A stretch of DNA of 64,000 nucleotides from Protoeuglena noctilucae (lineage: Eukaryota). The position numbers and the translations under genes are program-made. Shown piece after piece: positions 15,500-44,400 of the stretch (within the stretch, counting starts at the first letter, position 1; every line of letters begins with the position of its first letter). Below the pieces are notes generated by a model. That model searched no databases and was not told the origin of the DNA. It worked only from the letters and a program-made list of their open reading frames with translations. Location: NCBI GenBank assembly GCA_958009085.1, contig OY253685.1, positions 806,001 through 870,000 of the forward strand, in the 5' to 3' direction.

Positions 15500-18400
15500 T
15501 CATTCCAGCGTCAGCGCGCGCGCCTTGTCTGCCCCCGCCACGCGTGCCACCGCCTCCCCCAGAGGCACCTGACCCATGTCACCCCCGTGGTACGTCCTCA
15601 ACGCCACCATCCCGGCCTCCTCCTCCTTACCCCCCAGCACCACCATCACCGGCACCTGAGATGGCGACATGAGTGAGGAGATGAGAGGAGATGAGATGCG
15701 CCCAAGAGCCCCTTAGTCTTATTCCCCATCCCTCCCTACCTCCATTCATCCATCATTCACACCTCTACCCATCTCCCACCCCTCCTACCTACCCCATCCA
15801 TCGCCACACATCACCACCCCTCCACACCCTCCCCACCTTGGCCGTCTCTGCGTTGCGGATGAGCTTGGCAATGCGCTCGCCGCTGTGGATCTCCGCTCGG
15901 ATGCCCGCCGCCTGGAACTGCCTGCGAGGGGCGACAGGCACAGCCACGCTGGCATCGAAAGCACCGCAACAGCAAAACCTTATGCGGATTGCTACACCGC
16001 TGAAGTCACTTCTCATTCACCCCACCCATCCCACCCCCACCCTGTTCCCTACCGTGGGAACCCCACCCTTACCACGCCCGCCCCACCCCCACTACGCCCC
16101 TCCCACCCCAACCCCCGTCCCCCGGTAATGATATCCCTGCCACTCGCTCACTCGAGCACTTTCTTGGCGTATCCGTCCTGCTTGTCCGTGATGGGCAGGA
16201 TGCGCACTTGCACGGGCGCCAGCCACAGGGGGAATGCCCCGGCGTAGTTTTCCGTCAAAACACCGAAGAAGCGCTCAAGCGACCCAAGGATGGCGCGGTG
16301 GATCATGATGGGGCGCTCCCTGAGGGAGAGAAGCGGATGGTATGTGATATTGATACTGTTATTGGTACTACAATGGGTGAGTAAATCACGGGACCCCAGG
16401 ATGGCGCGGTGGATCATGATGGGGCGCTCCCTGGGAGAGAGACAGGTAGATAGTATGAGATATCAATACAAGTCCCATCAGCATGAGAGTAGTCTTTGTT
16501 AGCCAACCAACCCCACAACCTCCATTCATGTGTCTGCCATCACTCCGCCACCCACCCACTCACCTCCCGTTGTCCTCCGTCACGTACTCGAGGCCGGACC
16601 TCTCCGGCAGGTTGAAGTCGAGCTGGATGGTCGAGCACTGCCACTTGCGACCAATGGCGTCCAAAATCTTGATGTCGATCTTCGGGCCGTAGAAGGCACC
16701 CCCGCCCTCGTCCACACCGAACTCCCAGCCCTGGGGAAGCGACAGCGACAGCGACGGTTCGGCAAAAGGGTCAATGGGTGGGGTAAGCACGGAGCTGACA
16801 ACTTCGCAGGATTGATGCAGCACTTGCAATGCCAATAGTACTACTCATCTCCCGATCCTGTTCCGACGTGGCAGTCCACGCCATCACCCACCCCACGCCC
16901 TCTCCTCGCCACCACCTCGGCAGTCCGTGCACCCACCCTACTCCCTCAACAACCCCACTCCCCACCCACCTTGGCAATCCATAACATCACCCACCCCACT
17001 CCCTCAACCACCCCCGTCCGCTAACATCACCCACCTTGGCCGTCAGCGCCTTCCTGAGCGCCGACTCCGCCCTTTCCCATATGGCGTCATCCCCCACGCT
17101 CTTCTCGGGCCGAGTGGAGAGGTTGATCTCGTAGCCACGGAACCCAAACGTCGACAGGACCTCCTCCACCAGGTCCAGCACGCCAATGATCTCACCCTCG
17201 ATCTGCAGAGAGAGAGATGGGGTGATGTTAGCTGTTGCCAGTCAGCGGTGAGGGATGGACTGCGGTGTGCCTGGCACTGGCCAGGACTGATGACCGTGGC
17301 GTGTGTGGCGCGGGTGAGTCGCTAACCCTAACGTTCCCAACGCGCATGCCTGTTCCCCCAGCACAGTCACACTACTTGGGTAGTTAATGCAGTTAACTGA
17401 CCATCACGTACATGCCTGCTACACACATCACTGTCCCACCTCCACACAACTACCCCTCTCCCCCCCTCGCCTGGTCGGGCAGGCAGAAAATGTGCCCGTC
17501 GTCCTGCGTGAACCCCCTCACGCGGAAGAGGCCGTGCATCGTGCCCGAGCGCTCGTACCGGTACACCGTGCCCAACTCGGCGAACCGCACGGGGAGCTGG
17601 CGGTACGACACGGGCGCGTCCTTGTACACCGCGATGTGGAAGGGGCAGTTCATGGGCCGCAGCTGGTACTGTTCGTCCTCCACGTCCATCTGATCGTACA
17701 TGTTCTCATGGTAGAAGTCGTAGTGGCTGCAATGAGGGGGTGTAAGAGTCGTGTCGCACTGCGCGAATGGCCAGCATGTTGGGAGACTCTAGACCACTGC
17801 CCCACCTCATGCACCATCCATCGGTGTTCTCACCCCCAATGCCCATCCTCACCCTCACCACCACCACCAACCTCACCCTCACTGTCACCCTCACCACCAC
17901 CACCACCCTCACCCTCACCCACACCCTCACCCTCACCACACCCACCCTAACCCCCTCACCCCGACGTCTTCCACAGGTCGACCTTGGCCACGTGGGGCGT
18001 GTAGACCAACTGATACCCCCGCCGCAGGTGCACGTCCTTCCAGAAGCTCTCAATCACGTGGCGCACCATGGCGCCCTTGGGGTGCCAGAACACGAGACCA
18101 CCCCCCGCCGTCTCCTGGATGGAGAAGAGCGATAGCTCCTGGCCCAGCTTGCGGTGATCGCGCTTCTTGGCCTCCTCCTTTACGTGCAAATAGTAGGCTG
18201 GGTGACGGGAAAGGGGGACAGTTGGGACTTGTAGTCTATCGATAGACGGCTGGTAGATGTCGGCTATCTGCGACACCCATCCCAGCTGCTCAAGCGTCTC
18301 ACACACCTCAGCAGCACCCATTCCCCACTCACCCAGCTGCTCTGGCGTCTCCCACACGGTGCCGTAGATGCGCTGCAGCATCTGGCGCTTCTCGTCCCCC

Positions 18401-19999
18401 CGCCAGTACGCCCCCGCGACCGTCTCCAGTTCCAATGCGTCCGTGTTGATGTCCGACGTCTTGGACACGTGAGGGCCCGCACACAGGTCCCACCAGTGCT
18501 GCGGTGACAAACACAGAGTGAGAGATGAGACGATGAGGGCAAGGAGGGTGGCGTGCCATCTCCCATAGTGCAAGTCTGTGTGCACCCTAGACTGCGTGGC
18601 TGCCATTACACAGCTTCTATGTGTTGGCAACCGCGCTCACTGCCGACTAGCTCCCCTCCAACCCGCACCTCCGGGTGCCCCGGCTCCCCGATGTGGTAAA
18701 TGGTGATGGGCGCCGAGGGGTCCTTCTCCACAATTCCCTGCAATATCTCCAGCTTGTAGGGCTCGCCCAGCGCACGGATGCGACTCTCGGCCTCGTCCTT
18801 CGTCACCTCCTCCCGGATGAAGGGGAGGCCCTTGCGGCTGCGGGAGCGGGCACGAGGGGGTCACACACATGAGCGACCCAGAAGGTCAGGGTTATATGGT
18901 CGATGCGAGCATGGACGAGTGTCCCAGGCTCGGAGTCCACGCAAGTAGACCTAAGAAACGGCCAGATAGATACGACCGTGCTGATGCTGGCATGTTGTGT
19001 TCCGAAAGCGCCTGGCCAGCCACACGCCCGTCACCAGATGCGCCGCATCTCCTTCTTGATGGCCGTCAGGTCCTTGTCCGACAGCTGCTCCGGGATGTCA
19101 AAGTCGTAGTAGAAGCCCCGATCGATCCAGGGACCGATGGTGACCTGCGCGTTCTTGTGCAGCCGCTGCACCGCCATCGCCATGATGTGGGCGCACGAGT
19201 GGCGCAGCCGGAGGAGCGCGTCCGACTCGTCCGACGTCGGGAGAGGCACCGGCGCCACGGTCTCCGCTCCCTTCGACGTCTCGCCGGCCCCGCGGCCCTT
19301 CCGCTCCTGCACCTCGAGCTGCTGCGCGTGCGCCACCACGTTGACGTTCACGTGCCGGCCCTGGGGCCCCGCGCCGACCAGGCCCCCGACCACGGCGGGG
19401 TGCCGGCAGAAAGCTGGCGACAGCGCCGCCCTGCGGACGCGACAAGCGGGTATGAATCGCTGCGGGCGCGGCCCAGGGTTGCGGATGATGCCCACGGGCG
19501 GCAGCCACCCGGGGGCCCCGCGCGCGTCCAGAGGTTCGTCAGAGGGACGTGTACAACTCAACAAGTCATCGTCTGCATGCGCGCCCCCCTCGGATGAAGG
19601 ACGGGCGCCGAATGGATGGCTGGCCGAGCTGCCCGCGCGCCCGGGCCCAACGCGCGGGCGTCGCAGGATAACTGAAGCGAAACGCACGCGCTCACGCACA
19701 ATGAGAGACGCATTTGCCAGGTAAACCGCTCAGCGACCGCGAATGCGACGCGGCGGACGCGGGCACTTCGCAGCTGCACCACCTCGCGCCACAGCACGTC
19801 TAGCCCGCTGGAGGTCGCCCGTGCCCGGGCCCATCCACCTGCCCGCGACGCCCACGAGCGAATTGTGCAACGCGGGAGGCGGGGACGCCGCGTCGGGCCT
19901 TGGAGCCGAGCTTTCGTGGCCGCGCGCTCACCTCCCGGCCCCAGCCGCGGCGCGCGGGGCGCAGCGCCTCGCATTAGCAACCACACGCATCGCCGGCAT
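15500..19999 (-). CDS. thrS: Threonyl-tRNA synthetase, organellar (bacterial-type) with transit peptide
   Basis: Exons 19999-19932 (tentative), 19430-19035, 18837-18669, 18498-18333, 18197-17960, 17726-17471, 17202-17035, 16730-16564, 16319-16152, 15921-15837, 15655-15500. Motifs [107 protein letters not shown] and [10 protein letters not shown]. Confidence 0.95.
17851..17945. repeat. Intronic (CACCCT)/(CAC)n low-complexity repeat
   Basis: Lies directly after the ThrRS donor at 17959 and reads as (GAGGGT)n on the transcript strand. Confidence 0.7.
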
Positions 20000-20247
20000 G
20001 CACCGCTGGATCATCGGCCCGCAGCGTCGGTGGCGCCCAGCGCTCTTCGACCCCGAGACCCCGGCGCGCGGTAAATCCACGCTCCCAGCCAGGTCACCGG
20101 ACAACAACAGGGATCGCGGCACCGAATGCGCTCGTCAGGACGCGATGCCGACGAAAAGTGAGGTCGACGACTGGCGTCCCCGGTCAGACTGACCCGTTGA
20201 GCGCCACATTGGCGCGTCTTCGAGCACGGCACGGCCCTCACCGAGTG

Positions 20248-22897: not shown

Positions 22898-23768
22898 TGC
22901 GTGGGTCTCTGGCGACCACGGACACAGCGCCGCAAGCAGCGCGAGGCGCGGTCTCGACGCGATTGCATGTGACTAGCATGTGACTGTATGTGACGAGGGA
23001 CTTCAACATGGTCACGGGAAACGGGAAGTGTCCAAGCGCGGTGCTAGATCAGGCGAAAAACGAACCAGCAAGCCAGCATGGGCTGAGCCCGTGGGAGGGG
23101 CGCGTGACGGCCCGCACGAGAGCGGGCCTCGCTGACTTAGGGTCCGAGTCTCTGGGCGACATGCTTCGCCATAGCATGTGAAAGGGAAGGCGCGCACAGG
23201 CGGCGGCGGCCTCGCATCCATGCAAGGCCGTCGTGGCAGCTATCCATCATGCAGCATCTGCACTGAAGTCGGGGTCGGTGTGTGGCGCTAGGCTTGCTCC
23301 GGCCATCACAGGCCGAGCTCCGCTCAAACGAACATCAACCATCGTGGCCCCGCCTTGGCGGAGCTGTGTGCTGGCACCCGGGGGGCCAGAGGGAAGACAA
23401 AAGGCCTCACTGCGAGGGGTTGATCCCGCACGTCCAGGACTGGGGTGTTGGGAGACGACCCCGGCCACAGGAATCAGGAGGCATGAGACTCTGAAAAGTG
23501 TCCCTAAGGCGAGGTGAGAGCCTCGCGACGGGAGAAGAACGGAGGGCGCCCCGGACTGGCGCAGGGCTGATGCACAAGAGGAGGAGGCCCGCAGCAGCAG
23601 TCCGGGGATGCGACCCGGCGCGGCGTGGCCCGAGCCGCGGTGATAAGTGGTACGGCTTTCGGCGCCCGGGTGGGGCGGGGACCAAAAGGGGCCATGCGTT
23701 AGGCATGGCGATTGCGGACGCAGGCCCAGCAATCGTGGACACGACAGCGTCCCATTGGTTCCGCGTGC

Positions 23769-26410
23769 TCACGACGCCATGGGCGCTGTCCGGCGTAGGT
23801 CGACGCTACGCTTGGAAAGCACGTCAGAGTTGGCGATCGATGTGTCCTGTGCAGGCCTGCGGGAACGGGCGGGAGGCGGGCGACCTCGCGAACTGTGCTG
23901 GTGTGCATGTCTCACAAGCACATTCCAGGCAACGCCAGCACCATGCCGCATCCGCATCGCTGCCCACCTCCTGCAGAAGATGCGCTGCCAGAAGCCTGGC
24001 TGGGCGTTTTTGGTCCCCGACCCCTTGGGCGTGGCCGACAGCCCGCTCCGCCCCTGCCCCTTGCTCGGCCCCTTGCGCGTCGCATCCGACGTCGACGCCC
24101 ACCGCCCTCCCCTTCCTGCAGGGTTGCAGAGCAAGGTTAGGTGAGAACGAAACAGTCGGCAACGCATTTGACAGTCATGGAGTCTCCGTGGGTTGTCGAA
24201 GAGGACGAGGGGCGTGGGGCGCTCACCAGGCAGGCTGCTGGCCATGGAGTCCCGGACCTCGATGGGCACCGTGGTGGGGGTGTCGGTGCCTTGGTCGGTG
24301 CACGCGCGTCCCCGGCTGGGTGCGTCGCTCATCGCGAGGCTCTGCATGGTCTGGAGGGGGAGCTGGGCGTCCATGCTGTGCACGCCGCGCCGGGACGATG
24401 CTGGGGGAGCGGCCGTGTTTACGTGCAGGCGCCAGACGGTGGTGCCGCTGTCGCTGACGCCCCCCTCCTTGACGCCGCCCGAGGGTGCCGCGTCGATCGC
24501 CGCGCTCCCGTCCGTCGAGGACGAGTTCATGGTCGCGTAGTGCTTGGTGCCTGCGCTGCTGCGCATGGACTGCCGCCGCGTGGCCAGCGATAACTGCCGC
24601 GCCGGGGCGAGCTCGCGCCACTTGACGGGCCGGGTGTTCTGGATGATGAAGGGATGGTTGTACAGCTCCTCCGCTGCGGGGCACGAGGCGGGTGCGTGGG
24701 GTCGCAAGGCCCGTTGCGGCATCCGGCAACCCTGCCACCCGCGACCGTCTTGTGAGCCCAGCGAGCTCTTGCGTGCTCAGCGAGACACTGCGCAACCGCC
24801 CCTTTCGCGGCTCACCGGTGGCGCGGACGAGGTCATCCCAGCACAGGCACTGCATGATGAAGGACTGGGCCAGGGGGCTCAGGCGCTGGAACTCCTCGCG
24901 CGTCTCAGGCCCCTCCTTGACGAGGGAGTGCAGCACGTCGCGTTCCTTCTCCCCCGAGAAGAGCCCCGTCCCCGTCAGCAGCTCCCACACCATCACGCCC
25001 AGCGACCAGATGTCCGAAGCGGGGCCGTAGCTGCGGCGCTGGGTCCGGGGCACCTGCGGCGCGAGATAGGAGGGTCAGTTGAAACGTGCAACGGGGGCAT
25101 CGGCGAGTCGCGAGCAGCGACGGGCGGGCAGGCGCACCTCGTGGCGCAAGGGGCCCTGGGGGTCGGAGGGGTCGTCGAGGAGGACCTCGGGGGCCATCGC
25201 GACGAGGGTGCCGAGCTGCGTCAGGGCGCGGTCCCGCCTCGCGATGTCGATGGCGAACCCGAGGTCGGTGAGCTCGACGTGGCCGTCCTCGTCGGCGAGC
25301 ACGTTCTCGAGCTTGATGTCGCGGTGCACGATGCCCCGCATGTGCAGGTACCCGAGCGCGCTGAGCATCGGGAGCACGACCCGCGACGCGATGACCCGCT
25401 CGTCCCGCGTCATGACGCGCAGGCAGGACGCCAGGCTCCCGCACCGCGCGTAGGGCATGAGGACGCACAGGAACTCCCCGTCCCGGAAGGCCGCGCACAG
25501 CGGCGTGATGTTCGGGTGGTCCATGGACGCGTGGATGTCGATCTCGCGCTTGAGTGCCTTGTGGAGGCCCGAGGTGAGCGATGGGAGGTGGTAGACCTTG
25601 AGAGCCAGCGTCATCTGCGTGTGCTTGTCCATGACCTTGTAGACGCGGGACACCATGCCCTCTCCGATCCTGCGGGCGTGTGGAAAGGGGCGCAGGTCGA
25701 GCGATGCGAGAGTGTGGGAGCGGGCGCGGGTCGAGCGGTGGGGCAGGGCGCGCGCTGCGGGGTGCAACAGGGGAAGTCAACGTCGGGCCCCGTCCCGCTC
25801 AACGACGCCGGGAGCGGGGGCGCAAGTCGGCAGGCGCAGAGAAAACAAGACAAACTGAGGGGCGATCGGGTCGGATTCCCATTAGTCCGCCCCGGATGCG
25901 CGCACGAATGGATTCACGCCCCGGTTCACGTTTCGCGCCCCCCGCGAAAATGCGCATCCGGGGGGGCTGAAAATTGCGGCTTTGAAAATGAGGAGCGAAA
26001 GAGGAGCTGGGAGGACCCTCCGTTGAGGTCAGCAGTCCCATCGACCGGTAAAAAGAAGGCGGGGAGGCGGGCGCCACATCTCCGAGCACCATGGGAATTA
26101 GGGGGTCAAAAGTGCTCTCTTTTGATTCATTTTATCCGTGGGCAGCACCGGCGGGAATGATACCCCACAGGTGCGGCGCATGGGCGTGCCTGACAAGGCC
26201 CACGCTTCGCGCACACTAGGACGCAGGCTGCGCGTCCCCAGACGTCCCCAGGCCGCCCGACGCACTCGCCGCTTACCTCTTATCCTTGACGAAACGCTTG
26301 ATGCAGAGAGTGCTCCCGGTCGTGACCAATTGGTGCGGGCATCGGCAGCCCACCACCACGGAGCCGTCCGGGAGGGCGCTCTCGATGTCCCACTCTGGCT
26401 CAGCCGCCAT
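23769..26410 (-). CDS. Aurora-like Ser/Thr protein kinase
   Basis: Exons 26410-26277, 25669-25138, 25053-24816, 24673-23769, with a probable in-frame intron at 24226-24116. Motifs IGEGMVSRV, LALKVY, REIDIHASMDHPNI, HRDIKLEN, DLG (DFG position), GTLVAMAPE, DIWSLGV and HPFI. The 3' end is uncertain. Confidence 0.85.
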
Positions 26411-26722: not shown

Positions 26723-29409
26723 CTAGGCGAGTGCGCCGATCACTGGCGCCTCGCCGCGGGCCACGCACACCGCCGCGCTTGCCACGACGCGCGCCCCGAA
26801 CGCCAGCAACGCGGGCAGGCTGCGCAGGTCACGCAGGCTGCGCGCCAGGCACCGCCAGCCCACCAGGGCCAGCCGGCGCGCCTCGACCCGTGTCAGCGAC
26901 AGGCCCAAGCCGCTCCCCAGGAACCCCGACCCCGGCCCCGCGCGACGCGTGGCCCACCGTCGCAGGCCGGGTACCGCCCGGGCCAGGGCGCCGGCCAGCA
27001 AAGCCCCGCACGCCGCCGCTGCGCGCGCTGCGGCGGGGCCCCAGGCCAGCGCGGAGAGGGCAGCCGGCAGCCCCGGCATCATGGCCAAGGCGCGCCGGGC
27101 CCCCGCCGCCTCGCGCGCCGCAATCGTCTTGACCAGCCGCGCCAGCCGCGCCCCCGCCGGCACCCCCCCGGGTCCCGCGCCCTCGCGCCTCTCCACCACC
27201 GCCCTCAGCTCCCCCTCCACCAGGTCCCTCAGAGCGGCGCGCGCCTCGGGCCTCGGATCCAGCGCCACCAGGCGCAGCAGGGGCGGCAGGGCCGCCCGGT
27301 ACAGACGGAAGCCCGGGTCCGCGGCCGCCGCCACGCCCTCGAGGGTGGCGAGCGAGCGCACGACGAGCGTGTAGTAGGGCGGGAGCCGGAACTTGTGCTG
27401 CAGCGCGGTGCGCGCCAGGGCCTTGGTCACGTCCCCGTACGACATCTCCCCGACGTCGAGGCCCCCGTCCGCGGCTCTCCCGCAGTAGAGGGCGAAGTTG
27501 CGGGCCAGGTCGGCCTGCAGGGCCTGCCTGTCCGTGCTGGGCTTGAGCAGGTCCATGGCCGCGAGGTCGTCGGCGAGGCGTGGCCAGTCGCCGAAGACGA
27601 TGTGCACGAAGGAGGTGAGCATGGCCAGGCGGTGCTTGTCCGACACGCGCGTCAGCATGCCGAGGTCCAGGTACACCAGGTTGCCCTCGGCGTCGACGAG
27701 GAGGTTGCCGGGGTGCGGATCGGCATGCATTACCCCCGTCTGCATCAGCTGCGTCAGGCTGCACTCGATCCTGCGGGGGACGCAAGGAGGGCAGCACTCT
27801 CGGCACGGTCGCGTGCCTGGCGCTCACTAAGCGCTCTGGCGCACGACCGCCACGTACCCGAGGTTCACCATCCGTAAGAGCCGCGCCCGCGCCCACTCAG
27901 GCGCTTCCCGCGCACCGAGGCCCTCCGGCACCCGCCCCGACACGCTCGCCAGCATGGCCGCATCCCGCCTCTCCTCCTCGGATGTGGTTGCCAATGACGT
28001 TGCCGGCACCGACTCCGCCTCCCCCCCGGCATGCTCCTCCGTTCCCGCGCGCATCACGGCCATGAGCTGCTTAGGACCCATCCCCTGCACCCACACCGAC
28101 GTCAGCACGCGCCGGCTTGTGTAGGTCCAGAGGATGCGCGCCGTCGACACCCCCCGCACACGCGCGTGCGCCGCCGCGAACTCCTCCGTGTTCCTCCCCT
28201 CGCATTCGTAATCCAGTTCCTGAAACAGCGCCTCCCCTACCGCGTCGGCAATCTCCCTGCGAAAAGCAGTCGGCGACTCATGCCACGTGCAACATGCCAC
28301 GCGACCCACCGCGTGCAGCGCGGCTGGTAGCACCGAGCACATCGGATTCTCGCGGCTCACCCGAGGTCCCTGGACATGCCCGCCACCATGCGTACCGCCC
28401 CCAGCATCTTGCGCAGCAGGTAGACATCCAGCGCCACCGCATCGACCGCCCCCGGCCGCTGCACCTTGACGGCCACCGTCTGCCCGCTCGACTTCAGCAC
28501 CCCCAGGTAGACCTGCCCCAGCGACGCGGACGCCACGGGCTCCTGCGCAGGCACCAACAAGGGAGAGGCCCTAGATTAGAGAGCCTTCGTGAGCAGCAGA
28601 GTGACTGTGTGCGAAGCCAAGGTAGCCATGCCGCCCCTCGCCTGGCTGAGGTAGGAGAAGACGTCGTCCAGGTCCCGCCGCAGCTCCTCGCGCAGCATCT
28701 GCCGCGCCACGTCGCTGGGGCAGGGCGGCGCCCCGTCCTGCAGCCGCGAGAGTGCCTCGGCCACCGTAGGGCCCACCACGTCCTGCCGCGTGGCCAGCAC
28801 CTGCCCCAGCTTCACGAACGTGGGGCCCAGGCCCGCGAGCGTCTCCGCCAGAGACTCGGCGTCAGAGCGCGACCGCTCAGACGCCCCCGCGGCCCCAGGC
28901 GACCCCTGGCCCTGCGCCGACACGAGGGCCGCCGCGCGCGCCAGCCCGACCCCGCTCAGGAACGAGCCCAGCCGCGCCCCGATCTGTGCGAGGCGCCGCA
29001 GGACCAACTCCGGCCTCTCGGAGAAGTACAGGTCGACCGCGGCACGGTCGTACACGCGTGGGAGCTCCGTGGCCTGCGAGGAAGGCCGGGTTGCCAGGTT
29101 AAGTCATGGAACGCGAACGTCGCAGTAAGTATTTGCGATGGGAATGACGCTCGCCTTGTACTCCCGCTCGAAGAAACTCGAAACGCGGGCCTCCTCCCAC
29201 AAAGCAGGCACAGCGCCGCCCCTGCCTGGTCCCTGCGGGCCGGGGACGCGGGGCTGGTTATATTCGGCATGCACGGACACGCGCATGAGGTCGGCTGAGC
29301 CGGGCGCGCGGGTGAGGCCCTCGCGTTTTTGTGGCCACGCCGGCACCGCATGCATTGGCGCCGCGGCGGACCCCCGGCGACGCGCGTGGCCACGAGCCTG
29401 GCTCAGCAT
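26723..29409 (-). CDS. ABC1K/UbiB (aarF-domain) atypical kinase
   Basis: Exons about 29409-29155, 29073-28642, 28542-28361, 28256-27858, 27770-26723. Motifs LGPTFVKLGQVLATRQD, LQD, PVASASLGQVY, VAVKVQRP, ELDY..EG.N, HADPHPGN, YLDLGM and FRLPPYYTLVVRSLATLEG. GC donors at 29154 and 28641. The start is approximate. Confidence 0.92.
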
Positions 29410-30845: not shown

Positions 30846-30850
30846 TGTAA
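30846..30850 (+). promoter_or_regulatory. Possible UGUAA polyadenylation signal of the Ctr gene
   Basis: TGTAA about 60 nt after the stop codon. UGUAA is the main chlorophyte poly(A) signal, but it was not seen consistently after the other genes here. Confidence 0.3.
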
Positions 30851-31789: not shown

Positions 31790-34700
31790 ATGTCATCACA
31801 TCCCGACAGAGCCGCGTCGCCAGGCTCAACGGGCGCTCCGATGGCTCGTGACGGTTCCCAGGTGAGCGCGGGAACGGTCGCTGCCGCCCCGCCGCCTCGC
31901 GCGCCGCGGCCCACGCGCGCCCCCGCGCCCCTTCCGCAGGATTTCTCCGCGCCATCCGCGACGACCCCGGCGAGCGACGCCGGCGCGGCCGCGTCGCAGG
32001 ACCCCCGGTTCCCGACCATCGCGGCCCATGGCGCGGACTCCGGGCCGGGCCTGCCGTCCGCGTCCGACTCGCAGCCCCGCGCCGCTCCGTCCGACGATCT
32101 CCAATCGTCGGGACCCCCCAAGCTCCCGCACCTGAGCTCCCTGATGCCGCCGCTGTCCTTCTCGGGCCAAGCGTCGCCCATCACCCCCGCGCCCCTCCCA
32201 CCCTTCCCCGTCCCCCCGAGCATGGCCCCGGTCGGCCACTCGGGCCCGGACCCGTGGGCCATGGGCGTCCCGGGCATCGCGTCCCCCTCCCCCTCCACCC
32301 GCACGCGCGAGGCCACGTCTCGCACCGCGGCGCTGCTGGGGCGAAGACGACCCACGGCGGAAATCACCGAAGAGGAGCTGTCGCGGGTGAGACGAGGGGC
32401 GATAAGATGAGACGGGTGGGTGGGCATATGAGATGAGGTGGGTGGGCAGATGAGATGGGGTGGCTGTGCAGGTGACGCAAGAGATGACCTCACCTGTCCC
32501 GTGCCATGTGTGCCGTTGTCCCTCCCTCTCATCCCTTCATCCCTTCATCCCCGCACCCCCTCTCCCCCTTCCTCAGTACTTCCACCTGCCCAGCGAGGAG
32601 GCCTGCAAGCGGCTGGGCGTGGGCCTGACAGTGCTGAAGCGCCAGTGCCGCAAGTACGGCATCCTGCGCTGGCCCTACCGCAAGATCAAGTCGCTGGACA
32701 AGCTGATTGAGAACGTGCGCAATGGGCACGTCCCCGGGGATCGATCGGCGGACGTGATCAGCCGCAAGGTGGACGAGCTGGAGATGCAGAAGGCGCGCAT
32801 GCTGCTGTGCCAGACGCACGATTTGGACGAGGAGACGAAGCGGCTGCAGCAGGCGTACAGCAAGGCCAGCCACAAGCTGAGGAAGGCCCGGGGGACGGCG
32901 GAGGTCAGGGCCAAGGACAGGCCCGCCATACAAGTGCAGGTGAGACGTGGGGTGGGGTGGGGGTGGGGGTGGAGGTGCAAGTGCAGGCGAGTGAGAGGGG
33001 GGGTCGGGGGGTCGGGTGGGGGTGGTGGTGGTGCAAGTGCAGGTGCGGGGAGGTAGCCTGGCACAAGGGCCAATACCTTTACGCGTTCCCTGCCTGTTCG
33101 CTTCCGGACGCACAGGCACACCCACTTCTCCCCTCCCCCCTCCCCAGGTGCCCCTGACCGGCCCCGATGGCCAGCGCGCCTACGTCAGCGTGTCGGTGGT
33201 CAAGCCCCTGGGGCAGGGGAGAGGCGCACCCCGTCCCCGCGACTTAGACTCCTCGAGGATCCTGGCGGCGATGCAGGCGGCGCTGCCGGAGGCACTGGCA
33301 CGCGCGGCAGGCGAGGAAGGGGGGGGGGGGGGGGTGACTGGGGTGGTTGGGGTGACTGGGGTGAAGGGGGCGGGTGGGGTGGACTTTTACAAGTGGGGCG
33401 AGTCCTCGAAAGTGAGTTTGCATGCACTGATCTCCACCCTCCCCTCTCTCACACACACAGAGAAGCACGAGCGTGAGGCGGCAGAGGCGGCGGCGACGCT
33501 GGGGACGCTGACGGCCATGGGTGCCCCCGTTCCCGTGCCCCCCTCTGCCGCCGGCGCATCGACGAGCCGCGCGTCGCAGGGGGCGGACCGGGACCCGGTC
33601 AGGGAGGGGAGGACCAGGGCGGCCACGGCGCTGCTGTCGCGCACGAGGAGGTGGGGCGGTATCGGAGAGGGGGGGTGGAAGGGTGTAGTAGTGGCCAGCT
33701 GGCGATGGATGATGATGACCACACCACGATAGATGACTTTGACCACACCACGATGCCGACTAGGGTGTATGTGATGTGTGTCAACGTCGTGGGTGACTTG
33801 CGCGACGTGAGGCATGGGTTCACCCACTCCCGCAGGCAACTGGAGGATGCGAGGATGGGGGTCTCGAGCTCCCAGGGGCCGCAGGAGTCGCGGTCGGCGT
33901 CCACCCCTGCTGACGCGGCCGCCGCCCCCAGCAAGTCCGAGTTTGAGGCGGTGGTGGCGGTGCTGCAGGGGGCGTTCGGGGGAGGCAACTTCCCGCTCAT
34001 GCTGTGGGACGACGTGGGGATGGGCGCGACAGGTGCGGGGCGAGAGGTAGCCATGCCACGTGTATTACATGCCATGTATGGCTGTGCGGGGGAGAGGGTG
34101 CCTGACCACATGCCATGCATGGGTGCATCTAGGTGCGGGGCGAGGGAGAGGGTGCGTGCGATTTCATGTGCGGTGCGAGGGTGCTGACCACATGACTGGC
34201 TGACCCTGCCACCCCATCGCATGCCACCCCGTCTCGCCCGCCCGCACCCCCATTCATCCCAATCATGTCCTTTCTGCGCCCAGACATGACGGGTGACTCC
34301 AGAGACCCCCACGCCTCCCTGCCTGCCGCCATGTCGCCGTGGGGAATGCACCTCAACAGCCCCGACGCACGCTACCCAGGTGAGCGCACGTGCATGTATG
34401 CGTGACTGTTCATGACTCACAATTGTGCTGACGGGTGCGACTCTGCTAGTGCCAGTGCAGTGCCACATACGAACCATCTCCCTCAGCCCACGTCCCACTC
34501 CACCCCACCCCCTCAGGCCCCCTCCCCGCCCTCTCCAGCGCCACGAGCCAAGCGCACCCCTACTCCTTCCCCCCCAACGCCCCCCTCATGCCACCGCCCA
34601 TCTGGCCCCCCAACGACGTCTCTGCCGCCTTCGCATCCCTCCCCCCCATCCAAATGGGCGTCTCGCCGTCCGGCCTGCCCGTCCCCCTCCCCATGCCCCT

Positions 34701-35187
34701 CCCATCCCTGCACATGGGGCCCGCACCCCAGCCCCACGCAACCGTGCCTGCGGGTGCAGTCCCCGCCACTGCAGGCCCTGCCAATGCGATCCCTGCCAAT
34801 GCAGTCCCCGCCACTGCAGTCCCCGCCAATGCAGCCAATGCAGTCCTTGGCAATGCAGTGCCCGCCAATGCAGTCCCTGCCACTGCGGTCCCTGCCAGTG
34901 CAGTCCCTGCCAATGCACCACCGGTGGGTGTCATGGGTGTGATGGGCGTAAGCGTCCCTATGGGCGTGAGCGCCCCATGGCCATCCACCAGCGGCACTGG
35001 CAGCGCAGGGCCACCGCCAGCGGCACTGCCGGACGCGGGCGCAGCCGGGCGGGCGGGGGAGGGGGAGGTTGCCGTGGATAAACCCCAGGCGACACCGACG
35101 CCGTCGCCGCCTCTGGGAGCGGCCATGGGGGCCGACAAGCCCGGGGGGGCGGGGTGGACGGTGCACGTGCAGGGTAATGCCGTGTGA
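31790..35187 (+). CDS. RWP-RK transcription factor, RKD subfamily
   Basis: Exons 31790-32386, 32577-32939, 33148-33310, 33461-33650, 33836-34032, 34284-34379, 34517-35187. RWP-RK domain ITEEELSRYFHLPSEEACKRLGVGLTVLKRQCRKYGILRWPYRKIKSL, then the RKD-type motif LDEETKRLQQAYSKASHKLRK. No PB1 domain, so not an NLP. Confidence 0.9.
34741..34917 (+). repeat. Coding 15-bp minisatellite, (A-V-P-A-N/T)n pentapeptide
   Basis: About 11-12 degenerate copies of gcagtccc(c/t)gcca(a/c)t in the last RKD exon. Confidence 0.85.
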
Positions 35188-35703: not shown

Positions 35704-35757
35704 CATGATGGCATGGCATGGCATGGCATGGTTTGGCATGGTTTGGCATGGGATGGG
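35704..35757. repeat. (ATGGC)n-type microsatellite
   Basis: catgatggcatggcatggcatggcatggtttggcatggtttggcatgggatggg, between the convergent RKD and SNF2 genes. Confidence 0.7.
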
Positions 35758-36136
35758 ATATGTGAGACCACCATTGCGTTGCGGGCACAGCGCGTGAGTG
35801 GCATGGCGACTTTAAGCTTCGCATGTGAGAGATGCAGGGTGTTGATATCTACTGAAAGGGACAGCATAGGTGGCAGCAGAGGAGCGCAGGTACACTACAG
35901 GGGAGGCGTGCATAGTAGGCACCACTGCCGTGCCACCACTGGCATCGCATCCCCCATTTGACATGCCTCTATGCACGCCACGCGCAAAGCAACGATCCAA
36001 ACAGCAAAGCAAGCGCCTCGCAAAACAAAGCAGCCCTGGCCTGGCTTCTTGGCACATGCTGATGCTATGTGCACAAACCCACCATCTCCCTCACTGCAGC
36101 TCTTGCCCCATCGCCCACACCACCCCTCTGTCCCCC

Positions 36137-38378
36137 TCACTGCAGTTCCGGCTTGCTGAAGAGCACGTCCAGTTCCGCCACTCTCAGGTTTTCTTTGTCA
36201 GAGCGGATGGCCCCTGCCACACGCGGGGCGGCCACGGGGGGACGGGGGGCGACCCTGAGGAGGGGAGGGGAGGTGGTGAGTGAGGGTGGGAATGAGGGTG
36301 GGAGTGAGGGAGGGAGTGTGGGTGGGAGTGAGATGAGGTGGGGGTGGTGGCGAGTGCAGAGAAGAGGTGGGGAGGTTGAGGTGCTAAGGTTGCGGGGAGG
36401 ACTCATTATACACAGTAATAACCACCCNNNNNNNNNNNNNNNNNNNNNNNNNNNNNNNNNNNNNNNNNNNNNNNNNNNNNNNNNNNNNNNNNNNNNNNNN
36501 NNNNNNNNNNNNNNNNNNNNNNNNNNNNNNNNNNNNNNNNNNNNNNNNNNNNNNNNNNNNNNNNNNNNNNNNNNNNNNNNNNNNNNNNNNNNNNNNNNNN
36601 NNNNNNNNNNNNNNNNNNNNNNNNNNNCAGGTGCTCGATGGTGGAGGTGAACTGGCTGAACACCAGCGCCTTGCCGAGGGGTCGCGCTGGCGCATCTCCG
36701 ACAGCTCCTGGGGGGGGGAACACAAGCAGGGGGGTGAGGGGTGAGGGGTTTGAGGTGAGGGGTGGGGCGTTGGGGGCTGGGGGGAAGGTTGGGGTTGTTG
36801 CGCAGCAATGGCACCCCACTGCACTCCTTGCCTCCCCACTGTCCCCACCACCATCACTCTCACCCTCATATGCGCCTGCACCACTGCACCCCACCACTCT
36901 CACCCATCACCACCACACCCCTCACCCTCATCCGCACCCACACCCTTCACCCCTCACCCTCATCAGCGCCTGGAGCTTCGCCTCGCACTGAACGTCCCCA
37001 CTCCCCTCCCCCTCCCCGCTCCCCTCCTCCTCTCCCTCAGGTGCCACCGTGGCTGGCAGGCGGCCCCTCACCAAATCCCTGCCCATCAGCTGGCGACTGG
37101 GGGGAGACAGAGGTGGGGGATTTGAATATGAGAGACTCATGAGATGAGGAGAGATGGATGTTTGAATGTGAGAGATGAGGAGAAACGAGGGGAGGTGTTG
37201 AATGGATGAGTGGACGGAGAATGGCTGGGGGTGCGCTGGGCAGGTGTGTGCTTGGCAGTGCACACGCCCGCCCATCCCTCGCTAGGCCACCCCTCTCACG
37301 CGCACCTGTACCATCCCCATCCTGCATAACTGTGTTTATATGACAGTTAATACACTCACCGGCATAGGGGACACTTAGGGTTGTTCTCGATGGCGCCCAT
37401 GATGCACTCACACATCATCACACTCATGCCATCTATTCATATTAATACAACATACTCACCGGCATAGGGGACACTTGGGGTTGTTCTCGATGGCGCCCAT
37501 GATGCACTCGAAGCAGAACCAGTGATGGCAGGGGGTGCGCATGGGGGCGTCAAAGTCATTCAAACAGATGCTGGGGGTGGGGGAGAGAGAGGTGATTTGA
37601 ATATCTGTCATCATTTGAATATCTTTCATGAACGCAGAACCAGCCCTCACTTGCTCCCTCGCTCACCACACCCATGCAACACCTGCACCCCCCTGCACCC
37701 ACCCTGCACTCCCCCAATCATCCGGCAGCACAATACACACATCATTCCCATCCCATCCACACTCAAATCCACATCCACACACCCCCCCCCCCCCCCCCCC
37801 CAAGTTCACCTGCACTCCCCCACGTCGTCCGGCAGCACGGGCGCCCCCCCCTGCTCCCCCCCCATCTGCGCCTCCCCCACCACATCCGGCAGCTGCATGT
37901 CCTTGGCCGTCAACGTGCTTCCCGAGCATATCTTGCGCAGGGGCAGCAGCAGCCGCATAACCTGCAGCATCTTCTTCGACACTTGCTGTGTCCCCATCTG
38001 CCGCAGCTGCTTGTACTGCTGGCTGGCCTGGTGGTGCAGGCGCAAATACGCGGCCTTCTCAGTGGGGGAGAGGACCACCTGGGGGGGGGGGGGGGGGGGG
38101 GGAGGGGTAAGGGGGGTGTTTGGGGGTGGCAGTGAGGGTGGCAGTGAGGGTGGCAGCGAGGGTGGCAGTGAGTGAGGGTGGCAGTGAGGGTGGGGGTGAG
38201 GGTGCGGGTGGGGGTTAAGGTGGTGGGTGAGAGGTGGTGGCTGTGTGGGGTGCGGGTGCAGGGCGGGGATTGGACTGTGCGGGGGGTGCAGAGAGCTTGT
38301 GTTCTCATCAGAGCACAAAGCATGAGCAACCCCACCCTCACCAGTCACACCTCCACGTCGTGCTCTCACCAACACCCA

Positions 38379-38416
<38 letters not shown>

Positions 38417-41400
38417 ATCACCCACTCTCACCTCCACGTCGTGCTCCTCCTTGTCCGGCAGCTGCAGGATCTGCTCCCCCGCGATGTGTTGCGCCTTGGT
38501 GTGACGCACCACCACCTGCTGCAGCACCTGCACGCACCACTGCCGACTCGACTCCCCGCGAACCACCCAGTCCCTGAGGGAGGGGGGAGATGGGGGAGAT
38601 GAGAGGAGATGGAGGGAGATGGGATGAGATTGAGGGAGATGGTGGGGGAAGTGAGATGCAGGGAGATGCAGGGAGATGAGGGGGGTGTGTGACATTGACA
38701 TGTGAGGTGCATGTGGCAGTGAACATGAGGGGATCAACTACCCATCCCGTGCTCCCAATCCCCCACCCACCCATACCCCCATACCCACCCTCTCTCCCCA
38801 CCACTACACCTACCCATCCCACTCCACTCCACCCCCACCCACACCCCCACCCACACCCCCCATCCCCCTCACCTCCCCGTCCCCGCGAAGGGCCCCCGGA
38901 TGAGCGCCTCGAATGCGGCGGGGTTGTCGAGCGGCGTCATGCGCAGTGCGGCGAACTGCCCCAGCAGGTCGCGGATGTCGGTGTTGACGGGGGTGCCAGA
39001 GCAGCACCAGCGGCGGTCGGCCTCGAGCAAGGCGCAGATGCGGGACTGGGCGGTGGAGGGGGTCTTGACTGGGGGCGATGGGAGGGGGGGGGGTGTGGGA
39101 GTGTGTGGGAGTGAGTGAGTGACAGAAGAGTGAGTAAGGGTGATCGGTGAATTGATCAAGGAAGTGTGTGAGTGCCCATGTCATCACCATCCCCACCCCC
39201 ACTGCCCCCCACTGCCCCTCACCGTTGTGGCTCTCGTCAAACACCACGCGCCGCCACTTGATGCGGCCGATGGCGGCCTGTGGGGAGGCAGAGGAAAAGG
39301 GGGGTGACTCAAATGAAATGGAAACACCCGAAAACAGCGAATGACACTGTTTTGCCGGCCCTGTTTCAGTCACCCCCCCATCTCCTACCCCCCCACCTTG
39401 GTGACTGCTTTCCCCTCCCTCCCCTCCCTCTCCTCCCCCTCCCCCTCTTTTCCCCTCGTCTCCTCTTCGAGTCTCCCCATGGCTGCTTCCAGAGATGACA
39501 GGGACGTGGGGTGCAGCAGGCCGTAGCGCTGGCCGTACAGCTGCGCACTGCATGTAAGGGGGGGGAGGGGAGAGGGGTGGGGCAGATGAGAGGGGGACTT
39601 ACAGGGAGAAATGGGAGTGATTGGTGACTGTTATTAATATAAGCACTTGCATGAGTCGATGGCCCACTTGCATCAAACTCACACACACACACACACACAC
39701 ACTCACCCCGGGTACAGCACATCCATGGCCCCCCTGCGGTACCCCCTCTGCCGTGACCCCCGCCCACGCCCGCCCCCACGGCTGCCACGCCCCCTGCCAC
39801 GCCCACGCCCCCTCCCCCTCCCACCCTCATCCCCGTTCTCATCGCCACCCTTATCCGCCTTGTCACCCTCAGCCCCGCCCTCCCTGTCACCCCCATCACC
39901 CTTATCCCCCTTATCCGCCTTATCCCCCTCCCCCCCCCTCCATCTTCACATCCCCACCCGTGTCACCACCCCTACCCCCTTCTTTCTCTTTCCCCTTATC
40001 CCCATCCTCGCTCCCCTCCCACTCTTCTTCAGACTCATCTGTGTCACCCTCACCCCCCTTGCGCCCCCTCCCTCTCCCCCTCCCCCCTCCCCCGCCCCCC
40101 CCCTCCCGCTCCCCTCCCCTGCACCCTTGCCCTTCCCCTTCCCCTTTCCACCCTTGCCAGTCAGACTGCCGTCTGCTGCTCGGAAGTCAGCCACCAGTGT
40201 CTGGTAGGTGGTGATGACGATGTCCTGGCACGCCAGAAAGGCGACGTCCCTGGGGGGACGGGGAGGATGAGGGGGTGAGGGGTGGAATGGGAGATGGTTG
40301 GATCGTTGGTAGTGTTGGCAATGGTAATGGCGATGGTATGAGATGCATATAGAGATTGGCATTCACCATTAGCGCCCAGTCGCTGCACCAACCGCCCCCC
40401 ATGCCTCGCATTAACACGCGCATGCACAGCACTACCCAACCACACTCGCCTCTTCCTGCTCTGTCCGTGGTACTCGTAGATGCGCACGTCCTTGTCCACC
40501 ACCTTGCTCCTCGCCTCCTCCGCCCACTGACCCACCAGCGACACGTTGCACACCACCAGCGTGGCGTGGGAGAGCAAGAAGCCGTCGCCTGCATGTGTGG
40601 GCGTGAGTGAGTGAGTGAGTGAGGGAGGGAGGGAGGGAGGGAGGGAGTGGGGAGCGCGTGTGACGTGGCAGCTAAGCATGGCTGTCACCCACAGCAACAG
40701 TGATCATCGCAACCATCACCTCGCCATCCACTCACACAACCCCCCCCCCCCTCTCTATCACCAACCCACACACCCAACCCACACCCCCACACACCCCCTC
40801 ACCATTCACCGCCAGCCCCGTCTCCCCATCGAACCCCACCGCCTCCGGGTACGCCTCCCTTGCCCTGTGCAGCGCATCTGCCTCCTCGTCGGTGCCCCTC
40901 TCCTCATCCTCGATGATTGGCAGTGGGGACAGGCACGCGCGGTCGCTGAGGATGAGGGCCAGGATCTCCACTGCAGGGGGGTGGGAGTAAAGGAGTCGAT
41001 AGTGATAGTCAAGGTTGATGTCTGCATTGGCATGACGAGTGACAGGCACGGGCGGTCACTAAGATTGAGCGCGAGGATCTCCACTTTGGGGGGGGGGGGG
41101 GAGGGGAGAAGAGTGGAGGGGTTGGTATTTGTAATTGTTACCATCTCCACTGCGATGAGAAGGGGGCAGGCAACACGCACAATCATACACTCCAGCATGT
41201 CAATCGAACTCCATCACCATCCCCCTCTCACCCGTCTTCCCAGCCCCATCTCATGCACACATCTCTATCCATTTCCACTTACATCAATAACATCCACTCT
41301 CACCCGTCTTCCCCAGCCCCATCTCCTCTGCCAGGAACCCCCCCCTGGGCGACGATGGCACCGTCAGCGCCAGTCGGTGCATCATACCGCTGTACCAGAG

Positions 41401-44400
41401 CACCTGGCCGGACACTGCGGGAGGGGGGATGGGGCTGAGGATGAGAGAGACGAGGGGGGGTGTAGTTAGTATCGGATGAGAGATATCAGGGGTAAAGTAT
41501 GGGTGCAATGCGGGCAGAGCATCGGTGCATTGCAGGTACTACCAACCGCCATTGCCGTCACTGCCGCTCCATGCACCGATCATGCATGTGCCACTCCCAT
41601 GCCCCCACCGCGCATGTCATGTCTTCCACCCACCCTCTCACCCGTGGTGATGGGCAGCCAGAGCACGGACCGGCACCCCCCCTCCCTCTCCTCGGCCTCT
41701 TGCATGGACGCCAGCGACTGGAGCTGGTACGGGCGGAGCATGACGCTGGGGGGGAGGGAGTGGGTGAGTGTGATGAGAGTGGGTGACTGAGAGTGGGAGT
41801 GGGAGTGGGTGAGTGTGATGAGGGTGAGATGGGAGTGGGAGTGAGGGATGAGGTGCATGGGTGCGAGTGGCACACCTCCCTCTCCCTGTTCATCGCGTAA
41901 CAACCAACCATGCATAGCAATTTGTCGTATCCAGCCCCCCCATTCTCACCTCAGCCCTTCTGGCTGCTCTGCGGCGTCCCTCTCCGGCGACTGCAGCGCA
42001 TCCAACTGCGATTGGGGGACAGGGAGGGGGGCGCTGTTGCAGACGTGCCGGCAACCATGATAGACATACCATCAAACAACACTCATCGTCATCGTCATAT
42101 CATTCTTCGCACAACCCTCACCAGTGCCTCCAGCGACCTCTCCCTCAGCTTCGTGGCCTTCTCCTTGGCATCGTCGACGCTGCGGAAATACGCACGCACG
42201 TCCGCACTGGGGGAAGGAGGGAGGGGGGGTGGGTTGTGAGACATAGGGAAAGGATGGTATCGTGAGATAAAGAGATGGATAGGATGAGTCAAAACCAGTC
42301 CTCAGTCACCCCAACCACAGCAGCAACACCACACCCCATCCCCCACTCACCGCCCCTCCATGGCTGCCCTCCTCAGCAGTGCATCCATCACTGTCTGCAG
42401 CTTCAGCGCCGGGAACTGTGCCTCAGTGATGGCCGCCTTCTGACCGGGCCTGGGGGGGGGGGGGGGGAAGGGGGGACAGATGGGGTGGGGTGGGTGTGGA
42501 GAGAATGCAAGAGTGATGGTGATGATCGTCTATCAAAAACATGCGAGTGATGGTGGTGCTCGTCTATCAGACTCAACAGACGCAGAGGGTCGACATGACA
42601 CCCATGGCATTGTAACCTTTACATGCAGAGCAGCCATCACTCACACTCCCACCAACTCCCCTTCAATACCCTCACCAGTGGTTCACCACTCATACCCCCA
42701 TACCCCTCACCAGTGGTTGGGCCTGCCGCTGAGCACCATCACGGCGCTGTGCGTGGGCTCTTTGGCCACAAAGACCCTCAGCACCGCCTGCCCCCTGCGC
42801 CCGCTCCCCTGCAGCTCCACTCGCACGCGCAGGGGGGGGCGGAGGTCGACGGTCGTGACGGCGCGGGGGGGCTCCTCCCCCTCAATCATGTACAGCGAGG
42901 AGAGGACCGTGGGGGGAAGGTCTGGGGGGGAGAGGGGGGAGGGGGGTGAAGAGGGGTGGTGGGTGGAGAGAGGTAGTGAGTGATGGGTAGCATCGACAGG
43001 GATAGCAGAGCACAGACGTGCAAGCATACTGCTCTCCCCTCCCCTACATCCCTCATCCCCACGCCACCTCCCCTCACCTGCCGGCTCCTGCCCCCTTCCG
43101 CCACCCCCCCTGCCCCCGCCTCTCCCCCCACCCCTCCCCCTCCCCCTCCCCCGCCCCTTGCTCAGAATGGCGTCCCTCACTGCGTCCAATTCCTCCTTCG
43201 TCGGCCCCTTCATCCAGCTAGACAGCGCGCGCACCGAGTGCAGCAGGGCGGTCGTGTCGCTCATCTCCCTCCGCAGTGCCTCCCTCCTCATGCGCATGAC
43301 CTTGGTGACCAGGGCGTCACGCATGACAGCCGCGCGCTCGGCGGCGGAGTCGGCGACGACGCGGGACACGCGGGAGGCATCCACGCCTGAGGGAGAGAGG
43401 GGGGGTGGGGGTAGCAGTGGGGGTAGCAGCGGGGGTGGGTGGGTGGTGTTGTGGGTGATGATTGACGTGTGTGCAAGTGTGGCTGGGATGCGTTGGGAGG
43501 GTCGATGAATGATGGATGGCGGCTGATGTGAAGACACAGCACAGGCACACAATGGGTCAGCATCCCTAACGCGGCATCTCCCATCCCCACCCCTCACCCG
43601 ACTCTGGCATTAGCAGTGCGTTGAACTCGATGAAGGTATCCAGGTCTCTCGCGCGCGACAGCACCGCCGTCAGGTCGAGCACGGTGGACGACTCGGGCGT
43701 GACGCCCCGCGCCCCATCCCTGAATCTGTCCAGCACCTGGCGCGCCGCGTGCATCTGCGCAGACTGCGCAGAGCCGCCGCCCACCCCGCTCGGCCCCCCC
43801 GGGCCCATCGCCATCGGCGGCATGTGCGCCACGCCCCTCATCTCCGCCCCCGCCCACCCCGCCGCCCCCTGCGCTCGCTCCAAGCAGTGTGCCTCCGCAA
43901 ACGCCTCCGCGGTGGGCCGCTCCGTGCCGTTGCGCGCCAGGAACACCCGCACACGCGACGGCTGCGACGGCTGCGACGGCTGCGGTCGCGGCGCCCCCCT
44001 CCCCCGCTTGGGGGGGCGGGTGGTGGCAGCATCGATGTCAGTTGCGTCGTCACCCATCGCGTGCGACAGCCACCGCAGCACCTCGGCCTCGATCTCTGAC
44101 TGCGGGGTTGGAAGTGGGCAGAGGGAGATGAGAGGAGATGAGATAAGAGGGATGGAGTGGAGTCGTGATACTAGAGAAACAATCGATTGCATGTACAGCA
44201 TCGCAGCGCTTGGCCATGAACAGTAAACGCTGTACAGTAATCGATGCCAACCAAACGCGTCCCCTCTCTCACACCTGCAGCTGCCTCAGCTCCCCCATGC
44301 ATGCCATCTCACCTGCAGCTGCCTCAGATCCTCAATCGACATGCCGTCTCTTACCTGCAGCTGCCTCAGGTCCACCACCGCCCCCTCCCCCGGCTGCGTG

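Follow-up and report, generated by a model that had tools for sequence, protein, structure and literature searches.

What makes the introns of a few genes carry diverged copies of their own splice junctions? The question is raised by a 64,000-nucleotide (nt) window of Protoeuglena noctilucae (assembly GCA_958009085.1, contig OY253685.1, positions 806,001 to 870,000 of the forward strand), the window being the whole stretch of DNA that was analysed. The genes concerned are ThrRS, RKD, and SNF2. In their introns, a splice site and its adjacent exon edge are repeated, and such a copy is here called an echo. An earlier reading of the sequence alone (the sequence-only reading) proposed that introns here grow by junction-spanning tandem duplication. 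One part of that proposal stands, in that each duplication lengthened its intron; the other does not, in that the junction is not special. The echoes are probably the junction-straddling share of a general and locally very active head-to-tail intron duplication of 30–115 nt. That tandem duplication lengthens these introns and leaves decoys is supported.

The window is GC-rich nuclear DNA (55–71% guanine plus cytosine, GC, in bins of 2 kilobases, kb) from an intron-bearing eukaryote. Gene models were made with a purpose-built dynamic-programming gene finder (3-periodic coding versus intron model, GT/GC..AG introns) that was trained on long dynein reading frames and 11 introns supported by RNA contigs. 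The ThrRS, RKD, and SNF2 models were then curated by hand. The filters (GT or GC[GA]AG donor, AG acceptor, 45–760 nt) were passed by 88 introns, giving 176 junctions. The junction coordinates of the sequence-only reading match these models throughout, and all 13 of its echo pairs are present at or within a few nucleotides of where they were placed (11 clear, 2 weak). Two further echoes were found at donors 37809 and 36957. The genes and their echoes are as follows.

15500–19430, minus strand: ThrRS, an organelle-type threonyl-tRNA synthetase gene with 10 model exons and 9 introns of 135–304 nt.
16275–16331, minus strand: real acceptor-junction copy of ThrRS intron 16320–16563 (exon edge plus CAG), repeat family D14.
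16386–16442, minus strand: echo of ThrRS acceptor 16320, at 16431; 57 nt, 91% identity, period 111, CAG kept.
16917–17046, minus strand: array at ThrRS donor 17034, two tandem units of ~65 nt by whole-unit alignment. Unit 16982–17046 holds the donor and 12 exon nt; echo unit 16917–16981 (echo at 16969) has an identical 10-mer donor. Related repeats of period 58 and 103 lie near this donor.
18281–18357, minus strand: ThrRS donor 18332 (18332–18357, 25 exon nt) and its echo 18281–18306; period 51, 88% identity. The echo lacks the GT owing to a 10-nt gap.
31940–35187, plus strand: body of RKD, a gene for an RWP-RK (RKD-like) transcription factor, from RNA-contig joints.
32387–32576, 32940–33147, 33311–33460 (GC-AG), 33651–33835, 34033–34283, and 34380–34516, plus strand: RKD introns.
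32931–33050, plus strand: array at RKD donor 32940, three tandem copies of CAAGTGCAGG plus donor, repeat family D7. The donor is GTGAGA and the echoes are GCGAGT (32987) and GTGCGG (33043), with a shared core of 12–14 nt. The tandem-repeat finder reports 32931–33024 as period 47, 2.0 copies.
34031–34144, plus strand: RKD donor 34033 (34031–34044) and an exact 14-nt repeat at 34131–34144. Only 2 of the 14 nt are exonic, so it is the intron start (copy at 34133) and not the exon that is repeated, which makes this a weak echo.
36628–47628, minus strand: SNF2, a SNF2/RING (RAD5/16-like) helicase gene with ~26 model exons, cut on its 3' side by the N gap at 36428–36627.
36916–36970, minus strand: SNF2 donor 36957 with 13 exon nt (36948–36970) and its echo 36916–36938; period 32, 91% identity. 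The echo, at 36925, has an identical 10-mer donor and was absent from the earlier list.
37354–37509, minus strand: SNF2 donor 37459 with 50 nt of RING-finger exon (37454–37509) and its echo 37354–37409, at 37359; 56 nt, 98% identity, period 100, both donors GTGAGT, repeat family D11.
37700–37845, minus strand: SNF2 donor 37809 with ~30 exon nt and its echo (core 37703–37716) ~107 nt into the intron. The echo donor is shifted by one base, and this case is new relative to the earlier list.
38341–38446, minus strand: SNF2 donor 38431 (38422–38446) and its echo 38341–38365, at 38350; period 81, 92% identity.
40928–41098, minus strand: SNF2 acceptor 40971 with ~45 exon nt (40928–40985) and its echo 41041–41098, at 41084; 58 nt, 81% identity, period 113, repeat family D10. 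AAAG replaces GCAG in the echo.
41222–41313, minus strand: SNF2 donor 41303 (41294–41313) and its echo 41222–41241, at 41231; period 72, identical 10-mer donor.
42669–42718, minus strand: SNF2 donor 42710 (42704–42718) and its echo 42669–42683, at 42675; 15 nt exact, period 35.
44267–44377, minus strand: array at SNF2 donor 44354, three tandem copies with periods 42 and 38, repeat family D12. The copies are 44347–44377 (real), 44305–44335 (at 44312), and 44267–44297 (at 44274). The tandem-repeat finder reports 44272–44377 as period 38, 2.7 copies.

A chance origin of the echoes is excluded. The echo search used 25 exon nt plus 8 intron nt as the query, and the target was the adjoining intron, to a maximum of 158 nt. 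Scores of at least 15 were reached within the adjoining intron by 10 of the 176 junctions, where 4349 shuffled exon–intron pairs predict 0.28; this is the comparison that the sequence-only reading had proposed, run on the window. When the null is restricted to the three genes, the figures are 10 of 82 junctions and 0.38 expected. With a score of at least 13, 15 are observed and 1.4 expected. Two borderline echoes elsewhere, at donors 5877 (score 14) and 61894 (score 13), were rejected, falling within these 1.4 chance matches. In full-unit alignments of 10 loci, the similarity extends into the part of the unit that stems from the intron, where mismatches and indels are more numerous. As the similarity runs beyond the junction, whole units of 32–113 nt were duplicated head to tail, and junction fragments were not inserted.

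Whether the junction itself is special was addressed with pseudo-junctions. The same query and target scheme was applied every 5 nt inside introns, and a match had to score at least 15, exceed the best of 20 foreign intron targets by 3 or more, and lie at an offset of at least 30. The numbers with a copy are given by gene.

ThrRS: 2 of 18 real junctions; 25 of 224 pseudo-junctions.
RKD: 0 of 12 real junctions; 15 of 80 pseudo-junctions.
SNF2: 8 of 44 real junctions; 115 of 1094 pseudo-junctions.
All other genes: 0 of 62 real junctions, in agreement with the earlier statement that the short-intron genes show no echoes; 0 of 1314 pseudo-junctions.

Pooled over the three genes, copies are found at 10 of 74 junctions (13.5%) and at 155 of 1398 interior pseudo-junctions (11.1%). 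The echo rate is thus essentially no higher than the background of tandem duplication within the same introns. Junctions are neither preferred nor causal, and the junction-linked growth that had been proposed is not borne out.

Counting duplication events gives the same picture. Events were defined as ungapped segments with a score of at least 14 and a period of 25–130, with short-period arrays excluded. This gave 22 events in the three genes: 8 across a donor, 2 across an acceptor, and 12 in intron interiors. When a unit of the observed period is placed uniformly on any viable position of its intron, 4.7 donor, 4.7 acceptor, and 12.6 interior events are expected (chi-square p = 0.14). The 8:2 ratio of donor to acceptor events has a binomial p = 0.11.

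Duplication is concentrated in these genes. An annotation-free scan of the whole window returned 24 short-range duplications with a score of at least 16: 5 are in ThrRS, 14 in SNF2, 1 in the repetitive last RKD exon, 2 in low-complexity coding sequence at 21.5–21.9 kb, 1 at 25671, and 1 at 56587. A tandem-repeat finder gave the same clustering. About 20 events lie in 9.7 kb of introns of the three genes versus about 1 in 9.5 kb of other introns, and because these totals are similar the contrast is roughly 20-fold. The largest interior duplications, 46266–46405 (period 62/38, ~140 nt) and 45161–45235 (period 39), are distant from any junction; one DNA contig of metagenome run X5 covers both.

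The introns of the three genes are also polar in composition. On the sense strand, G makes up 55% of the first fifth and 10–18% of the last, and C 9% of the first and 41–55% of the last, with a weaker gradient in introns of other genes. Sense-strand G-quadruplex (G4) motifs number 32 in the 9.7 kb versus 4 in the 9.5 kb elsewhere. For the donor-like GGTGAG, SNF2 introns have 14 occurrences versus 5.6 in shuffles, and ThrRS introns have 9 versus 2.4. Acceptor-like C[CT]CAG is not enriched over shuffles in either set (9 versus 11.1 in SNF2 introns, 1 versus 3.3 in ThrRS introns).

The 70-nt ends of these introns can pair, with a mean of −56 kcal/mol for an intron's own ends and −53 kcal/mol for ends swapped between introns. 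Swapped ends pair almost as well as own ends, so the complementarity is generic and not intron-specific. For 7 of 21 SNF2 introns, the pairing falls within the best 9% of end swaps, a result that is not relied on.

Several points weigh against treating the echoes as a mere share of a general process. SNF2 has copies at 18% of junctions and 10.5% of interior points, so a modest junction excess is possible there. Removing short-period queries leaves 7 of 41 (17%) against 75 of 891 (8.4%), or 6 of 37 (16%) against 41 of 608 (6.7%), a ratio of ~2–2.4-fold. Donor-spanning events exceed their expectation (8 against 4.7). Some interior matches are further copies of the junction arrays at 44354, 32940, and 17034; at event level, the 44354 array accounts for one interior event, and the 17034 interior events share an array with its echo. 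Pseudo-junction points are autocorrelated, so the junction–interior comparison has no valid p-value. All statistics come from one 64-kb window, a small sample. Most SNF2 junctions, those beyond the ones backed by RNA joints or protein motifs, rest on the gene model, and the ThrRS echoes lay outside the stretch compared with reads as a DNA check. The link to slippage and G4 is only correlative, and the repeats could themselves have made the G-runs.

The alternative that survives best is a junction-linked process, in which duplication is triggered or favoured at splice junctions, for instance by splice-site breaks or R-loops at the G-rich 5' end, and introns grow mainly by copying their own ends. 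It is unlikely. The donor excess and the SNF2 excess, at most 2.4-fold after low-complexity filters, would fit it, as would GGTGAG at 2.5–3.8 times its shuffled frequency in SNF2 and ThrRS introns. However, uniform placement is not rejected, acceptor junctions are under-represented, and 12 of the 22 events lie in intron interiors, some at a good distance from either junction (for example 46271–46343, 45161–45196, 42511–42535). A modest junction excess would in any case be expected if selection preserves the functional copy in its exon half and only the echo diverges, and slower decay of the exon-derived half could alone give a detection excess of up to 2-fold.

General duplication would leave decoy splice sites wherever a unit straddles a junction, and such sites are present, as the sequence-only reading had stated. 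A donor matrix from the 88 model introns gives real donors a median of 9.5 bits and a 10th percentile of 4.1. Among echo donor positions, 12 of the 14 scored reach at least 6.7 bits, and four are identical 10-mers. Scored offsets are multiples of 3 in 5 of 14 cases (at 5 of 11 donors), as chance predicts. Two echoes keep the reading frame and contain no stop codon: acceptor echo 16431 (+111 nt, 37 codons, open frame 16148–16462) and donor echo 44312 (+42 nt, +14 codons, open stretch 44289–44612, minus strand). The gene finder itself picked the inner donor 44312.

Mapping RNA junctions had been suggested as a check on which copy is used. RNA-contig joints use the exon-proximal donors 34033 and 36957. 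From 32577 to 34516, RNA contig X8 contains 1009 exon bases exactly. This count fits splicing from donor 32940 to acceptor 33147, and an inner donor, which would add 47 or 103 bases, could not be accommodated. The outer donor is used in all three informative cases at contig level, and the joints listed cover none of the other 10 junctions. Contigs drop rare forms, and exon-proximal use rests on these 3 cases. RNA run X10 yielded an unspliced 309-nt contig over 44237–44545 that is uninformative on donor choice at 44354, as are the parts of SNF2 that lack listed joints for the donors they contain.

These observations bear on a second alternative, that inner copies are kept by selection, either as alternative splice sites (+14 codons at 44312, +37 codons at 16431) or as extra U1-binding sites that would help to define the intron. 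Such retention is quite improbable. The 12 usable-looking donor positions and the two in-frame, stop-free echoes would suit it, but offsets are multiples of 3 only at the chance level, the echo of 18332 has lost its GT, and the RNA contigs take the outer donor each time. The retention of GT or GC in most echoes is about what ~90% identity would predict without selection, and the copies range from 73% to 100% identical, as in steady neutral decay.

The third alternative, that haplotype merging or mis-joined overlaps during assembly made the extra copies, is hardly credible: the window has a 200-N gap at 36428–36627, and a 1-nt discrepancy at 36672 versus three runs shows the assembly to be imperfect, but separately assembled X5 contigs run across the copies of six junctions without any listed difference, and the copies differ from one another by both substitutions and indels and sit in unique flanks, as the sequence-only reading had in part observed. 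The six junctions, each with all its copies in a single contig, are 32940, 34033, 36957, 41303, 42710, and 44354. The X5 contigs that span arrays show the same copy number as the window, all within this one metagenome DNA run. SNF2 echo copy 37359 and its unique flank are covered by an X5 contig that ends inside the repeat. X5 is not the run with the fullest coverage of this stretch, so it is probably not the source sample, though its independence is unproven. Sampled words of 36500–45000 are found to 94% in runs labelled with one organism and to at most 87% in marine metagenome DNA runs, with parts in marine metatranscriptome runs.

How general intron duplication might produce the echoes can be proposed in a few steps. 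The introns of the three genes would be prone to it as low-complexity, polar sequences, G-rich at the 5' end with GGTGAG-like and G4-prone runs and C-rich at the 3' end. A unit may be duplicated at an essentially random position when G or C runs undergo replication slippage or exchange unequally. A unit that straddles a junction would be harmless while the spliceosome keeps to the exon-proximal site, the 5'-most donor or 3'-most acceptor. The surplus copy would then become intron and decay. Its exon-derived half may remain recognisable for longer because selection keeps the functional copy unchanged. If the donor met first is the one taken, donor-side copies would accumulate and acceptor-side copies would be purged, which could produce the 8:2 bias. 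Slippage, the role of the G and C runs, and the purging of acceptor decoys behind this bias are all inferred.

The wider form of the proposal is that in a subset of genes introns lengthen mainly by tandem duplication of 30–115 nt, driven by 5' G4-prone G-runs and 3' C-runs, with the first donor taken, donor copies accumulating, acceptor copies purged, and the decoys forming a standing source of intron-boundary shifts. In full, this is a speculative and rather doubtful generalization. If it were true, full-strength decoy donors would be such a source, with some decoys in frame (44312, +14 codons; 16431, +37 codons). The decoys had also been suggested as a route to intron sliding or gain. There was no sign of it in the window: among the 88 introns, the signature of duplication-created introns, ends that match the opposite exon flanks, was absent, with best scores of 8 and 12 versus a null 99.9th percentile of 12.

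The echoes are an algal instance of known boundary-spanning intron minisatellites and the expected by-product of a gene-specific duplication burst. Head-to-tail copies of one unit are found by whole-unit alignment at 10 loci, and the outer unit holds the authentic exon edge in 8 donor and 2 acceptor events under a strict criterion. No algal report of junction-spanning intron tandem duplications was found in the open-access literature.

The closest known system is the amphioxus "mirages". These are tandem repeat units that span the exon–intron boundary and lie in the intron, at both 5' and 3' boundaries (PMC3087553). Units are 10–72 base pairs (bp) in Adh3 and 150–160 bp in globins, with unit identity of 81–100% in BflGb6. 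Many units keep AG/GT, regular splicing is reported to be undisturbed, and an explicit model for new intron positions is given, as are length polymorphism and somatic instability (PMC3087553). The echoes share the boundary-spanning tandem units, their presence at both boundaries, and the AG/GT signals kept in many units. The host differs, being a unicellular GC-rich marine alga and not a cephalochordate. Arrays here have mostly 2–3 copies compared with the 3–6 described for mirages, and they are demonstrably a subset of equally frequent interior intron duplications.

Intron 7 of human F7 carries a 37-bp variable number tandem repeat whose first unit spans the boundary of exon 7 and intron 7 (PMC1557585). 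Identical pseudo-donors are functional but silent, and the most upstream site is chosen (PMC1557585). In the RNA contigs, 32940, 34033, and 36957 fit this arrangement of an authentic donor followed by tandem pseudo-donors, with the most upstream used. F7 as there described is a single locus of perfect 37-bp repeats with site choice tested by mutagenesis, whereas here there are many loci with diverged 32–113-nt copies and RNA at contig level only. Internal tandem repeats at exon–intron boundaries are also described as reshaping human paralogues (PMC2812944).

A related idea is intron gain by duplication of an AGGT-bearing exon segment, a model whose original form is reportedly that of Rogers in 1989. 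In both cases, a local tandem duplication gives a second splice signal and one copy turns intronic. In AGGT duplication a new intron arises with a length equal to the period, whereas the duplications here extend an intron already present. Lehmann et al. 2010 (PMC2891723) treat gain from tandemly duplicated proto-splice sites, and the same topic is taken up in Hellsten et al. 2011 (PMC3265369) and in Ma et al. 2016 (PMC4974935).

Introners resemble the echoes in occurring in marine GC-rich algae and in placing repeated sequence in introns. Their transposon mechanism is said to come from Huff et al. in 2016. Introners are dispersed, multi-copy, and ~200 nt long, whereas the copies here are strictly local and tandem. 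No dispersed introner-like family was found in the window, where only the low-complexity families D2–D5 recur between introns. Introner elements are mentioned for Micromonas and pelagophytes (PMC9481584).

Boundary-spanning intron minisatellites, silent pseudo-sites, and a proposed role in intron gain are therefore already in print. What the window adds is ~11 donor junctions in 14 kb (two genes plus a neighbour), a dense natural set of tandem and equally strong donors. The set could serve as a natural test of spliceosome choice among identical sites and could give a measured example of intron growth by local duplication. The more interesting lead is the sharp gene-to-gene contrast together with the polar, G4-rich introns, which needs the whole genome to evaluate.

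The junctions used above are supported to different degrees. The spliced ThrRS protein aligns over residues 44–651 as one ungapped segment to intronless homologues L001–L004, which supports all ThrRS junctions. For RKD, the gene finder was exact for 5 of 7 RNA-supported introns (32387–32576, 32940–33147, 33311–33460, 33651–33835, 34033–34283); it missed 31862–31939 and 34380–34516, which were added from RNA joints. RNA-contig joints support the RKD introns, with 32940–33147 inferred from contig-length arithmetic and the gene model. The RNA-supported intron 27771–27857 was misplaced by the gene finder and corrected. In SNF2, introns 36708–36957 and 39069–39222 have RNA-contig joints, junctions 37809 and 37459 yield a continuous C3HC4 RING pattern, and intron 40971–41303 interrupts ...GLGKT|VEILALIL...; the residues around these sites are taken to be the RING and SNF2 motif I consensus.

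Relatives of the SNF2 and ThrRS products were also sought. A protein search with SNF2 exons returned a same-species genomic read-through protein, P0001, which carries PF00176, and one 77% relative, P0002. A search with a ThrRS exon gave no protein above 83% identity among the 120 matches listed. Neither search informs splice usage. A ThrRS exon used to scan metagenomes matched 80 loci, six of which were examined. The best four of these (L001–L004) are intronless, with 64% protein identity and 45–48% GC, and L005 and L006 also align as one segment at 50–54%. The relatives examined offer no orthologous-intron comparison.

Compared with the window, contigs of three runs (two RNA, one DNA) have one more G after 36672. 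The additional base gives ...KALVFSQFTS... in the SNF2 helicase-C exon; the window sequence itself is frameshifted there, 45 nt from the N gap.

A neighbouring gene at 52870–64000 on the minus strand encodes an axonemal-type dynein heavy chain. It has very long exons (3471 and 3630 nt) and a GC content at third codon positions of 0.95, versus 0.70–0.83 in the many short exons of SNF2, ThrRS, and RKD. An atlas search with a dynein fragment matched generic eukaryote clusters only. Pelagomonas seems an improbable source, as 0.45 introns per gene are given for it (PMC9481584).

The GC-AG intron 33311–33460 of RKD (CAG|GCGAGG) is supported by an RNA-contig joint. About 14 of the 88 model introns begin with GC[GA]AG, which would be a large proportion of GC donors, provided that the models are right. 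The last RKD exon, 34755–34917, contains ~11 copies of a 15-nt repeat with higher-order periods of 54, 69, and 84, and an RNA contig (34514–35675) covers this region unbroken.

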